Of a stretch of 43,947 nucleotides of DNA, positions 5,521 to 36,175 are shown in pieces; position 1 is the stretch's first letter, and each line of letters begins with the position of its first letter. This DNA comes from a phage. The position numbers and the translations under genes were made by a program. The DNA lies in the sequence record PZ671982.1. One strand, 5' to 3'. The notes under the pieces are model-generated. The model was given only the letters and a program-made list of their open reading frames with translations, made no database searches and was not told the origin of the DNA.

Positions 5521-5550
5521 AATATAGCGCAACCAACTCCAGCGAGGCAA
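5521..5550 (-). promoter_or_regulatory. sigma70-like promoter for 5078..5485 (TTGCCT-18-TATATT) containing TTGGTTGCA motif
   Basis: On - strand: TTGCCT, 18-nt spacer, TATATT, then GGTTGCACACCAACA identical to the element upstream of 38927. Confidence 0.4.
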
Positions 5551-32967: not shown

Positions 32968-32996
32968 AATCTACTTGGTTGCGCCTAAGCGGTCAA
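32968..32996 (-). promoter_or_regulatory. sigma70-like promoter (TTGACC-17-TAGATT)
   Basis: Read on - strand about 60 nt upstream of ATG 32903; spacer contains CAACCAAG motif. Confidence 0.45.
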
Positions 32997-34885: not shown

Positions 34886-34909
34886 GGCCCGCAGATTGGC
34901 GGGCCGGAA
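34886..34909 (-). terminator. rho-independent terminator/attenuator on - strand (GGCCCGC-caatct-GCGGGCC + TATTTTT)
   Basis: 7-bp perfect stem + T-rich tail between first early gene and rest of operon. Confidence 0.55.
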
Positions 34910-34913
34910 TATA

Positions 34914-35345
34914 TTAATCTTCCAGTTCGAAATAGGTTTCGACGATTTCTTTAAGATCTTTGTGGAAGTCTTCGACGTCGTCATCTTCCAGCTTGGCGAT
35001 TGATTTGATCTCGAACGCTTCCAGCAGGTCGTCAAATTCGTCGTTCGCATCGTCGTCATCACCGCCTGCGATAATCGCGGCATACTGTTTGATCTCGTCG
35101 CGCATCTCTGCCAGCGGATCGGCATCTTTCTTACCTTTGCCTTTCGCCGTGGCTTTTTTACCTTTCGCCGGTTTTTCGTCTTCGGCTTCTCCATCGTCGT
35201 CATCTTCTACGACTTCTTTTTTCGCTTTAGACGGCTTCTTGTCTTCCTGTTTACCAACGGCAGCGCCCACAGTTTCATAATGTTTAGCGATGGTTTCCAG
35301 TGCTACTACGCCGCGAGTAATCAGGTTTACGATTTGTTCAAACAT
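34914..35345 (-). CDS. highly acidic first-early protein (candidate DNA-mimic / anti-restriction)
   Basis: 143 aa from ATG 35345 (RBS GGAG); D/E runs DDDDGEAEDE, GGDDDDANDEFDD, EDDDVED; first gene after leftward early promoter. Confidence 0.55.
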   Translation of the reverse strand: MFEQIVNLITRGVVALETIAKHYETVGAAVGKQEDKKPSKAKKEVVEDDDDGEAEDEKPAKGKKATAKGKGKKDADPLAEMRDEIKQYAAIIAGGDDDDANDEFDDLLEAFEIKSIAKLEDDDVEDFHKDLKEIVETYFELED

Positions 35346-35541
35346 GGTATATCTCCGATTGGTTAAGTTTAGGTGTCGACCATTAACTTCGTCGGTGGCC
35401 TTAACATAGTGCCTGGTTGCGCGTTCTCCCTTTCGGGTAGTGGACCAGGTTATATAATCACGGTTGGGAATCCTGACACTTCGATCCGGCCCCTGCGTTG
35501 CCCCTCTCCAGTTTGCGTCCTGCATCCTGTCGACGAGGTGA

Positions 35542-35570
35542 ATATTAAATTGGTTGCAGAAGGGAGTCAA
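35542..35570 (-). promoter_or_regulatory. leftward early promoter (TTGACT-17-TAATAT)
   Basis: Hexamers read on - strand; about 190-nt leader to ATG 35345. Confidence 0.5.
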
Positions 35571-35684
35571 CAACTAATTTCAAAAAAAGCGCCGAGGCAA
35601 AATGCAACGGCGCTAACCAATAAGAGACAATGAGACGGGAATTATTATTACACGCGCGCGCGCCCGTTTCAATATCCAAAGGAG

Positions 35685-35713
35685 TTGACACTGTTTATTT
35701 TTAAGCATAGTAT
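35685..35713 (+). promoter_or_regulatory. rightward promoter (TTGACA-17-TAGTAT)
   Basis: Consensus -35 and near-consensus -10 about 35 nt upstream of ATG 35747. Confidence 0.55.
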
Positions 35714-35746
35714 GCGACCTGCACCCCGAACACACGAGACACAGCA

Positions 35747-36175
35747 ATGAGCACAAACGAGACCTTAAATCGCTGGAACCATAAGAAATGGCCCCACCAA
35801 ATTAACCGCGCCACCGAGGATGATAATACCATCGCTTTCGGCGATATGGACGCGGACCCTATGACCCCTGAGCAAATAGCCGCCGATGTGCTGTCAATGG
35901 ACCGACATACGGCTTCGGAAATAATCGTTGCTCTGATAAACGAAATAAGCGGCAGCTATAACGAACTGAATGACCTGTACGCGGAGCTTGACCTGTTGAA
36001 AGGTGGTGCTATCGCAGCGGTGCGTAAATCCGAAGAGGCAGCACGCGAGATGGCTATCGCCCGCGAGAAATATATGCCTGTCGTTAAGCGCCTGCGTGCG
36101 GAAGGCTTGTCATGGAATCAGATCGCCGAGATGACTGGAATCAACCGTTCTACAATCCGCCAGTGGGCTAAATGA
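35747..36175 (+). CDS. HTH DNA-binding protein (putative regulator)
   Basis: 142 aa; C-terminal GLSWNQIAEMTGINRSTIRQWAK helix-turn-helix-like segment. Confidence 0.55.
   Translation: MSTNETLNRWNHKKWPHQINRATEDDNTIAFGDMDADPMTPEQIAADVLSMDRHTASEIIVALINEISGSYNELNDLYAELDLLKGGAIAAVRKSEEAAREMAIAREKYMPVVKRLRAEGLSWNQIAEMTGINRSTIRQWAK

Follow-up and report, generated by a model that had tools for sequence, protein, structure and literature searches.

Among the described systems closest to the locus analyzed here are the put RNAs of lambdoid phage HK022, antiterminators that act in cis near a promoter, are about 70 nt long and consist of two hairpins, and CsrB, which carries CAGGAUG repeats. Virulent coliphages have hardly been explored for structured non-coding RNAs. 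We describe a 160-nt folded RNA element that begins an early transcript of a Dhillonvirus and recurs in at least seven further siphophage lineages. Like put, it is a structured RNA that would act untranslated directly after an early phage promoter, and here too a terminator follows the first gene; in the manner of CsrB, CsrC and McaS, it presents A(A)GGAY in a hairpin loop, similar to the CAGGAUG of CsrB, with more GGA triplets nearby. The folded leader element, shared by several phage groups, is new and absent from RNA family databases.

The window (the whole stretch of phage DNA that was analyzed, 43,947 nt, record PZ671982.1) is of the HK578 type of Dhillonvirus, with 97% identity to HK578, and positions 35346-35746 are its divergent early promoter region. 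The features in and around this region are as follows.

34886-34905, minus strand: strong intrinsic terminator that immediately follows the first leftward gene, annotated in the WF5505 record
34914-35345, minus strand: first leftward gene, for an acidic 143-aa protein of unknown function (phrog_3127)
35346-35374, minus strand: A/C-rich linker (ACC.AA..UUAAC) and GGAG ribosome-binding site of the leftward gene; diversity 0.024
35375-35534, minus strand: conserved structured RNA element of 160 nt, the 5'-terminal domain of the PL transcript, found in at least eight lineages and with covarying helices
35542-35570, minus strand: PL, leftward sigma70-like promoter (TTGACT-17-TAATAT), conserved across Dhillonviruses
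35550-35558, minus strand: operator-like repeat TGCAACCAA (plus strand TTGGTTGCA), within the PL spacer
35582-35637, minus strand: candidate small RNA of about 56 nt, from promoter P3 through the terminator stem (35614-35588) and the U run to 35582
35644-35672, minus strand: promoter P3, leftward (TTGAAA-17-AATAAT with an extended -10 TG)
35653-35662: (CG)5 tract, within the spacer of promoter P3
35685-35713, plus strand: PR, rightward sigma70-like promoter (TTGACA-17-TAGTAT, 10/12 matches)
35747-36175, plus strand: first rightward gene, for a 142-aa protein with a C-terminal helix-turn-helix (HTH_23, E = 6e-7)

All the features that the original prediction listed were found where it had placed them, and its main description of the region, a divergent early control region, is borne out: PL and PR are opposed, with 115 bp between their -35 hexamers. 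PR would drive the helix-turn-helix gene together with the primase/helicase genes, and its -35 hexamer is kept in all aligned Dhillonviruses. A third promoter, P3, had been missed; both of its hexamers are conserved in the Dhillonvirus alignment. All three promoters match the sigma70 hexamers at 9-10 of 12 positions with spacing within 16-18 nt (their start sites are predicted), and the GenBank record of HK578 already annotates them as promoters. Conservation across Dhillonviruses is stronger support for them than the count of promoter-like sites, which is 5 in a 2.3-kb stretch versus 2.1±1.6 expected. Upstream of PL lies the T-rich tail of a terminator, which is reminiscent of an UP element. 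The region had also been taken for the likely early-to-late switch, and nothing in the analysis shows one.

The motif overlapping the spacer of the leftward promoter is truly repeated, as had been suggested: TTGGTTGCA, at 35550-35558 in PL, occurs in 10 exact copies in the window, often paired, where about 0.3 would be expected (an estimate for a 9-mer on two strands), and allowing up to one mismatch there are 24 copies versus 11.3±3.5 expected, a number reached by 0 of 100 shuffles. It is thus a genuinely repeated operator-like motif, and its TGCAACCAA copy is invariant in the PL promoters of Dhillonviruses. The 142-aa helix-turn-helix protein is a candidate binder of the TGCAACCAA (TGCAACCAAT) sites.

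Between the promoters, the hairpin AGCGCCG-N13-CGGCGCT (35588-35614) is present as described, but it is not a free-standing regulatory hairpin. On the minus strand its 7-bp GC stem, with a 3-bp extension, is followed by a run of six to seven U, and with this U run and the fold of -16.4 kcal/mol (z = -2.7) it is an intrinsic terminator, that of the promoter P3 transcript; the WF5505 record annotates it as one. The earlier suggestion of a small RNA is therefore plausible: promoter P3 and this terminator predict a transcript of about 56 nt, the body of which is invariant in 20 distinct Dhillonvirus sequences. For the 5' part of this candidate RNA, pairing to the leftward gene's ribosome-binding site is predicted at -15.9 kcal/mol, a value equaled by 2.6% of shuffles; the pairing is a 14-nt match of modest significance. 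Its pairing with the rightward leader was set aside as not significant (12.6% of shuffles equal it). The (CG)5 tract is likewise present as claimed, but a role as a functional element of the Z-DNA type was rejected: its count is at chance level (at least one copy in 50 of 100 shuffles), and the tract is perfect in the window and HK578 only, with most other Dhillonviruses interrupting it as CGCGTGCGCG.

The leftward transcript carries the main finding. With an expected PL start at about 35535 and the ATG at 35345, its leader is about 190 nt long, and both this length and the GTCGAC copies flanking the predicted inverted repeats (35529-35534 and 35375-35380) were verified. Within it the element folds into eight helical segments with two nested three-way junctions, closed by P1. 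Its parts, all on the minus strand, are given below in transcript order.

35529-35534, minus strand: 5' strand of P1 (GUCGAC), pairing with 35380-35375; 5/5 P1 pairs change on both sides across lineages
35512-35526, minus strand: P2 hairpin with loop A(A)GGAY, found in all rows of the structural alignment and in L173
35500-35504, minus strand: 5' strand of helix P3 (GGRGC), pairing with 35399-35394 (GCY-A-CC)
35460-35498, minus strand: P4, a long irregular hairpin (ACG/CGU, GGGG/UCCY, CYKGAU/GUCWGG) with loop CGWAGU
35402-35456, minus strand: P5a-P5-P6 arm; 13/15 pairs change on both sides
35394-35399, minus strand: 3' strand of helix P3, then a conserved single-stranded GACGARG stretch (35393-35381)
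35375-35380, minus strand: 3' strand of P1 (GUCGAC), at which the deletion found naturally in Envy, WF5505 and JLBYU37 has its edge

Single-stranded GGAGA (35509-35505) lies 3' of P2, helix P3 encloses both the P4 hairpin and the P5a-P5-P6 arm, and P6 (35440-35426) is capped by a GNRA-type tetraloop. The sequence of P1 varies between lineages.

The check that had been proposed, covariance across related phages, came out strongly positive, and the leader is a structured RNA. In the structural alignment (A4; 32 sequences, N-padded and built by hand with the helices in mind, which favors pairing and which the slid controls and a held-out sequence offset in part), 99.1% of the model cells are paired, versus 32-45% in the slid controls, whose 3' partners are displaced by 1-3 columns. 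Pairs that change on both sides number 19 of 39 versus 3-4 in the slid controls, and the covariation score is 0.48 versus at most 0.07, with 0 of 500 shuffles reaching the observed value; since many of the 32 sequences are close relatives, the independent compensatory events are far fewer than these cell counts. RNAalifold on the same alignment gave the same fold. In the held-out sequence, L173, which was not used in deriving the model, 42/42 pairs form with extra compensatory changes: the whole P2 stem is replaced by AGCUAU/AUAGCU, and a C-G pair in P4 becomes U-A. Because G.U cells number 96 and A.C cells 6, it is the transcript strand that folds. Outside the helices, 38 of 74 unpaired columns are invariant.

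The helices differ in how much they inform the model. P3 and P4 have few informative changes, and the invariant core is under-determined. In P4 100% of the cells are paired and the single changes are all wobble-compatible (32 sequences). The R/Y pair of helix P3 covaries without exception, as A-U in 18 sequences and as G-C in 14. An exclusive alternative pairing of the core, GCAACGCAGGGGCY/RGGCYACCGACGAAGY, is 99% compatible and has no double changes. Our first core model, which combined this long-range helix with a UCAGG/CCGUGA hairpin, was set aside for the RNAalifold model, as the latter accounts for both the U-A change of L173 and the perfect R/Y covariation; GCAACGCAGGGGCY/RGGCYACCGACGAAGY is possible as an alternative conformer. 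RNAalifold on a plain MAFFT alignment (A2) missed most of the variable helices because of register errors, and the N-padded structural alignment was made for this reason. Thermodynamics lends the fold no support: folded as a single sequence, the leader does no better than shuffles (z = +0.33), and in the window the comparative fold has -24 to -38 kcal/mol versus a minimum free energy of -47.9.

We gathered family members by BLAST and pattern scans. The element occurs in at least eight siphophage lineages (Dhillonvirus, Warwick-, Hanriver-, Changchun-, Jilin-, Sortsne- and Murrayvirus, and unclassified phages), in one copy per genome, with 73-94% identity in its core between lineages. Three further candidates (L034, L037 and L174) were rejected as chance matches in degenerate pattern scans, and one gapped degenerate pattern gave mostly noise. 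In other phages the element occupies gaps without annotation, in the same orientation as the flanking genes in every case, and lies within operons beside unrelated genes, so it is not specific to the control region of the window. Primase or helicase genes adjoin it in the window, Arya, HeidiAbel, MQ-4 and PHB17. The genes that come first after the element are spread over nine PHROG families without a known function, and the lineages share no downstream protein. The context upstream is more uniform: all lineages have a -10-like hexamer whose end lies 7-10 nt ahead of helix P1, and BUCT618 has an 11/12 promoter match ahead of the element and a terminator upstream of that promoter. On the 3' side, most lineages have the linker motif and a spacing of about 17-18 nt between P1 and the ribosome-binding site, and no terminator was found between the element and the next ORF; for these reasons we regard the element as a leader and not as a separate gene. 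On the evidence of these comparisons, a cassette consisting of the -10 hexamer, the initial transcribed bases, the RNA domain and the A/C-rich linker has moved between several genera of virulent enterobacterial siphophages, and it heads whatever gene lies downstream, independently of what that gene is.

Searches of reference collections gave little else. No match to the element was found in 5,426 E. coli genomes, and the sole GTDB match is a phage-sized contig in a metagenome-assembled genome. Rfam 15 has no match to it even at E <= 10, including a lax search of 361 nt; the best Rfam matches in the region are weak and lie in the terminator area (STnc480, 24 bits versus 72 needed). ARAGORN found no tRNA or tmRNA gene in 35000-36000. 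The element was not found in the literature on Dhillonvirus and Drexlerviridae or in structured-RNA surveys, and the single match to words of its sequence is an unrelated guide sequence.

The element is under purifying selection at every position; within the genus its diversity is 0.030, where the promoter has 0.117 and the third codon positions in the gene that follows have 0.186. The Dhillonviruses Envy, WF5505 and JLBYU37 nevertheless carry a short hairpin (cap GGGCAUACCGCCCG in the Envy type) within the same P1 base in place of the element, with no target-site duplication at this presence/absence polymorphism, and the element is therefore dispensable for a viable phage. The idea of a regulatory leader had been staked on a sequence both conserved and indispensable: the leader is highly conserved, but it is dispensable, as its replacement in these three phages shows.

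As an explanation of these observations, we give an even chance to a three-promoter region in which the PL transcript starts with a mobile, folded 160-nt domain that works in cis as a factor-binding module of the 5'-UTR; among the roles we weighed for the element, that of a factor-binding 5'-leader module is the most likely. The PL transcript would start at, or within a few bases of, the first nucleotide of the domain (35534, running to 35375). A small ligand or a conserved host macromolecule may then bind to a surface made up of the invariant junctions and loops, with the exposed purine-rich AGGAY and GGAGA as candidate contacts for the 30S subunit or CsrA, and the bound domain would set the stability and/or translation of the early mRNA. 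That it acts in cis is what its position, and only its position, suggests; no conserved alternative pairing that sequesters the ribosome-binding site was found across lineages. Because relatives carry a plain hairpin in its place, the element would be an accessory device for tuning or host interaction and not an essential switch.

In compact phage genomes an ORF follows almost anything, and an RNA released from the mRNA to act in trans would give the same picture. Such an RNA is the best of the alternatives, which we regard as a possibility to be held tentatively: an abundant accessory RNA, possibly cut from the 5' end of the early transcript, that sequesters or mimics a host factor. Examples would be a sponge for CsrA, Hfq or ProQ, or a decoy for an anti-phage nuclease or sensor. 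It would fit the accessory behavior of the element (present or absent within a genus, transferred between genera, independent of the downstream gene), its confinement to phages with no match in the E. coli genomes, and the invariance of half of its unpaired bases across Enterobacteriaceae hosts. The A(A)GGAY loop closed by the P2 stem also resembles the CsrB repeats, but there is a single clear GGA hairpin loop of this kind, neither a terminator nor a recognizable processing site follows the element, and a ribosome-binding site always follows at a similar distance.

The same 5'-UTR position could be that of a riboswitch-like aptamer that tunes early genes by sensing a small molecule, for instance an ion or a nucleotide second messenger. 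Features typical of aptamers are present, namely three-way junctions nested one in the other, junction bases that do not vary and a GNRA loop that might dock; we nevertheless consider this reading unlikely, since there is no expression platform (neither a terminator nor a conserved helix sequestering the ribosome-binding site), the downstream genes are unrelated (the nine PHROG families) and no Rfam riboswitch model matches. Processive antitermination of the HK022 put type, with the nascent domain binding RNA polymerase to promote terminator readthrough, is somewhat less probable still. The element is promoter-proximal in early operons, and the first leftward gene of the window has a strong terminator behind it, past which lie further leftward genes. 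Against this, the sequence downstream of the element in tunus, Arya and IME279 showed no intrinsic terminators on the same strand, WF5505 keeps the terminator after the first gene although it lacks the element, and the architecture differs from that of the two-hairpin put RNAs.

There is little to recommend a new self-cleaving ribozyme that releases a 5'-OH mRNA or the leader itself. Its compact multi-helix form, highly conserved junction bases and restriction to phages are compatible with one, but there is no conserved cleavage-site candidate, no known ribozyme model (hammerhead, twister, twister-sister, pistol, hatchet, HDV-like) gave an Rfam match, and the proposal is pure speculation and very improbable. 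We are equally skeptical of an element acting as DNA, whether a replication origin, a protein-binding array or mobile DNA with GTCGAC terminal inverted repeats: the clean presence/absence polymorphism and the adjoining primase or helicase genes in five of the phages (those named above) could point that way, but the G.U pairs are strand-specific (96 versus 6), internal helices covary though their sequences differ, each genome has one copy with no target-site duplication, and P1 differs between lineages, unlike conserved transposon ends. The least credible reading, that the leader codes for an N-terminal extension of the leftward gene's product (as in the annotated 627-nt CDS of KarlBarth), was rejected although the frame in the window is open for 76 codons upstream of the ATG: that frame is closed in 4/16 Dhillonvirus sequences, 1-2-nt indels separate the lineages, unrelated genes follow the element in other phages, a good GGAG ribosome-binding site precedes the ATG at 35345, and the diversity of the element is far under that at the third codon positions of the adjacent gene.

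The factor-binding leader leaves room for a wider and more speculative claim, which we think may be true but would not presume: that the element represents a new functional class of RNA, a horizontally mobile accessory RNA gene borne on a promoter-leader cassette, with a specific host protein or small molecule recognized by the invariant junctions of the RNA. Such a class might serve as a decoy or sponge that counters a host defence or a global regulator, or might be a new riboswitch or a new ribozyme. The element is large enough to permit a specific binding pocket, has passed from one phage genus to another and is under strong selection. Should a host factor or ligand prove to bind it, early host takeover or counter-defence would gain a layer made of RNA, and if it is indeed a new class, a function in takeover or counter-defence hitherto credited to proteins only would be shared by RNA. 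The carriers are easy to handle (HK578, the BASEL phages KarlBarth (Bas17) and HeidiAbel (Bas97), tunus and sortkaff), and natural relatives that lack the element are ready controls. More practically, spurious CDSs cross the element in several database records, and the promoter-leader cassette may be a portable expression module.

Among known systems, the candidate 56-nt RNA resembles lambda OOP, P22 sar and P1 c4 in having its own promoter and intrinsic terminator within an early control region, but, unlike them, it is antisense to no ORF. Compared with the put RNAs of about 70 nt and two hairpins, the element has 160 nt and two three-way junctions, its other lineages are without consistent downstream terminators, and it is dispensable in relatives that keep the terminator. 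It shares with the three-way-junction riboswitch aptamers (purine, TPP, c-di-GMP-I) the 5'-UTR position, covarying helices, invariant junctions and a GNRA-capped arm, but not their expression platform, coherent set of regulated genes, known ligand or Rfam match. RNAs of the CsrB type are arrays of simple hairpins, whereas the element is a compact junction fold with one such loop (its other GGA triplets are in the single-stranded GGAGA and inside the P4 stem), and its conserved bases are mostly elsewhere. Finally, like the 5'-terminal stabilizer hairpins exemplified by the ompA 5'-UTR, the element has its 5' end paired at or near +1, and the Envy-type phages carry a plain hairpin at this place; stabilizers of this kind need no sequence conservation, however, whereas about 70 columns of the element are invariant across genera.

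The original prediction of two opposed promoters about 115 bp apart, the leftward one with a leader of ~190 nt, is borne out at the control region: the -35 hexamers of PL and PR lie 115 bp apart, the leader is ~190 nt long, GTCGAC occurs twice, and all the other predicted features can be located as well. We also identify a third promoter, absent from that prediction, which matches 10 of 12 positions and has an extended -10.

34886-34905, minus strand: strong intrinsic terminator (7 G-C pairs and a T run) directly 3' of the first leftward gene
34914-35345, leftward: first leftward gene, an acidic 143-aa protein of unknown function
35375-35380 and 35529-35534: GTCGAC copies
35550-35558: TTGGTTGCA copy, within the PL spacer
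35570..35542, leftward: PL
35588-35614: hairpin
35653-35662: (CG)5 tract
35672..35644, leftward: promoter P3
35685..35713, rightward: PR

Two features predicted between the promoters are present but change their meaning. The hairpin (-16.4 kcal/mol, z = -2.7) is an intrinsic terminator with a minus-strand U run, and the (CG)5 tract is part of the promoter P3 spacer: its number in the window equals chance expectation, and the perfect tract is confined to the window and HK578, with CGCGTGCGCG in its place in other Dhillonviruses.

The 1.6 kb around the control region shares 97% identity with Escherichia phage HK578 (Dhillonvirus), whose GenBank record annotates three promoters in the same intergenic region; ~150 other Dhillonviruses give 93-95% matches ending at ~35691. 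Relative to the comparison sequences L009-L026 and L154-L156, a mosaic joint lies just past the PR -35 (~35691-35760). The PR -10 and leader of the window and HK578 differ from those of the other Dhillonviruses compared, the first rightward gene encodes 142 aa versus ~109 aa, and the window is without the palindrome GTTGGTCATTAACCAAC found downstream of PR in most Dhillonviruses. That 142-aa protein has a C-terminal helix-turn-helix (HTH) and is followed by a primase/helicase. Further leftward lie two small ORFs and a DUF2800/PD-(D/E)XK nuclease; because the terminator at 34886-34905 precedes the nuclease and other leftward genes, these need either an internal promoter or transcription past the terminator. 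At 32996..32968 there is a weak promoter-like site containing two TTGGTTGC copies.

The first 160 nt of the PL transcript (minus strand, 35534 to 35375; hereafter, the element) form a structured domain. A plain MAFFT alignment already shows a compensatory closing helix, GUCGAC/GUCGAC in the window, GACGGGC/GCCCGUC in tunus and GGGCGGCG/CGCCGCCC in IME279. As MAFFT mis-registered the variable helices, we built a structure-guided alignment of 32 distinct sequences, from which RNAalifold gave the following fold (minus strand throughout).

35534-35530 with 35379-35375: helix P1
35526-35512: P2 hairpin, loop AGGAY
between P2 and helix P3: single-stranded GGAGA
35504-35500 with 35399-35394: helix P3
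35498-35460: P4, a long hairpin
35456-35402: P5a-P5-P6 arm, capped by a GNRA-type loop
last segment: single-stranded GACGARG

In this alignment, which was made by hand with the helices in mind and in which many sequences are closely related, 99.1% of paired cells hold standard pairs (32-45% in slid controls), 19 of 39 pairs changed on both sides (3-4 in slid controls), and the covariation score is 0.48 (at most 0.07 in slid controls), a value reached by 0 of 500 column shuffles. The compensatory changes fall mostly in P1, P5a, P5 and P6; one pair of helix P3 alternates without exception between A-U (18 sequences) and G-C (14). A variant found later on a 50.8-kb contig (L173) and left out of model building forms all 42 of 42 model pairs, with a wholly different P2 stem (AGCUAU/AUAGCU) and a U-A pair in place of a P4 C-G pair invariant until then. 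The 96 G.U pairs versus 6 A.C cells show that folding is a property of the transcript strand and not of its complement or the DNA duplex. Of 74 unpaired columns, 38 are invariant. The invariant core (helix P3/P4) has few independent supporting events, and the sequences are equally compatible with an alternative, mutually exclusive core pairing. Thermodynamics alone misses the fold (single-sequence z = +0.33), which in the window amounts to -24 to -38 kcal/mol versus an MFE of -47.9. Covariance across related phages, the check that the original prediction proposed, thus indicates that the leader is a folded RNA belonging to a well-supported family.

In all lineages, a -10-like hexamer (TAATAT, TATAGT, TATATT or CATAAT) ends 7-10 nt upstream of where pairing starts, and in BUCT618 the order is terminator, TTGACA-16-TATAGT, element. 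From this spacing and layout, we infer that the element begins at the transcription start and that the conserved block runs from the -10 through the first transcribed bases (often CACAUAG) and the RNA domain to an A/C-rich linker (ACC.AA..UUAAC), which in most lineages puts the ribosome-binding site ~17-18 nt after the domain. In comparison sequences L022 and L027, TTGGTTGCA spans the -35 of the upstream promoter (GTTGGTTGCAATATT); this is the very 9-mer that recurs in the Dhillonvirus window.

In the window, the reading frame stays open for 76 codons ahead of the ATG, and CDSs are annotated across the element in KarlBarth (bas17_0049, L002 2615-3241, 627 nt), HeidiAbel (Bas97_0052, L030 1556-1675) and SO-1 (gp46); these are probably gene-caller artefacts, the frame being open by accident. 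We rejected the element as coding sequence, since 4 of 16 Dhillonvirus sequences do not keep the frame open and 1-2-nt indels separate lineages. At 0.030, diversity within the element is on a par with the 0.034 of codon positions 1 and 2 in the next gene and one-sixth of the 0.186 at position 3.

When the intergenic region was searched by itself with a sensitive BLAST, leader parts aligned at 73-94% identity with sequences from Warwickvirus, Hanrivervirus and Changchunvirus (Drexlerviridae), Jilinvirus, Sortsnevirus and unclassified phages, and later searches extended the list to Murrayvirus Lumpael, Serratia phage MQ-4, HeidiAbel (Bas97), Motto and others. The element occurs in ~170-190 of 50,697 phage records, in a single copy per genome and, in every case examined, within an unannotated 200-270-nt gap in the orientation of the flanking genes. 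Pattern scans of IMG/VR and metagenomes found more variants, all on 30-53-kb phage-like contigs. The element is absent from 5,426 complete E. coli genomes, and 185,579 species-representative genomes gave one match, a sortkaff/IME279-type copy on a 42.7-kb contig of a 'Cereibacter sphaeroides' MAG (L157, QFQS01000013.1). This contig is as long as a phage genome, is evidently phage and was probably misbinned. Near-identical coliphage-type sequence also appears in Campylobacter phage A144, Pseudomonas phage Motto (L032) and one Acinetobacter record, whose non-enterobacterial host labels look doubtful. A high-GC viral contig (L034, 7505-7615) shares the core's first 21 nt (GGAGAGGAGGAACGCAGGGGC) within a CCCCGCG/CGCGGGG helix, which we treated as chance.

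The original prediction turned on the leader being conserved and indispensable. Conserved it is, but in the Dhillonviruses Envy, WF5505 and JLBYU37, which retain the first gene with its ribosome-binding site as well as PL, the P1 base and the linker, a small hairpin (GGGC-AUACC-GCCC) replaces the ~145 intervening nt. The element is therefore modular and dispensable. Across nine lineages the first downstream genes fall into nine PHROG families, one per lineage and none with an assigned function, and no downstream protein common to the lineages was found. The original observation stands, and its interpretation as a regulatory switch with a possible small RNA or riboregulatory leader is partly right.

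Promoter P3 and the terminator delimit a candidate 56-nt RNA (minus strand, 35637 to 35582), whose body is invariant in 20 distinct Dhillonvirus sequences, element-less ones included. Its 5' part is complementary to 14 nt at the leftward gene's ribosome-binding site (35352-35365; -15.9 kcal/mol, equalled by 2.6% of shuffles). As both segments contain AACCAAT, the core of a repeated DNA motif, this complementarity may stem from sites that act in the DNA and not from contact between two RNAs. The motif, TGCAACCAA(T), has 10 exact copies in the window (5514, 21606, 24647, 24668, 26314, 26331, 35558, 38874, 38905 and 42328) and near-copies at 5528, 32967, 32983, 38468, 38503 and elsewhere. Copies are often paired 14-31 nt apart or palindromic (24647/24668), usually followed by TATAG or TATxAT, and look like an operator or promoter element of a phage regulator. 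The copy in the PL spacer is placed as an operator would be, with the HTH protein encoded alongside as its obvious candidate binder.

Position speaks for a 5'-leader module: the element lies at +1, no terminator follows it, and a conserved linker and a ribosome-binding site come next. Invariant junctions and loops beside variable stems argue for a specific binding surface. On position and conservation pattern, we favour a leader that would bind a factor or ligand and thereby set early mRNA stability or translation. Just as serious a contender is an RNA that is itself the end product and acts in trans as a sponge or decoy. The loop of P2 looks like CsrA-binding sites, a likeness that accounts for little of the conservation. 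A role as a put-like antiterminator fits the window, with its strong terminator after the first gene, but not other lineages, and WF5505 keeps that terminator without the element. A classical riboswitch is unlikely, given no expression platform and no coherence among the regulated genes. DNA-level and coding explanations are rejected on the strand-specific wobble pairs and the frame analysis.

No Rfam family matches the element, our literature search found no paper describing it, and it belongs to none of the RNA families tested. It may be among the >10,000 unnamed candidates of a 2023 survey of structured RNAs in viruses and phages, whose text does not name these phages. The element is apparently an undescribed structured RNA family, which virulent siphophages of enterobacteria carry as part of a mobile promoter-leader cassette. 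By analogy, it would work most like promoter-proximal phage leader RNAs and aptamer-type 5'-UTR domains.
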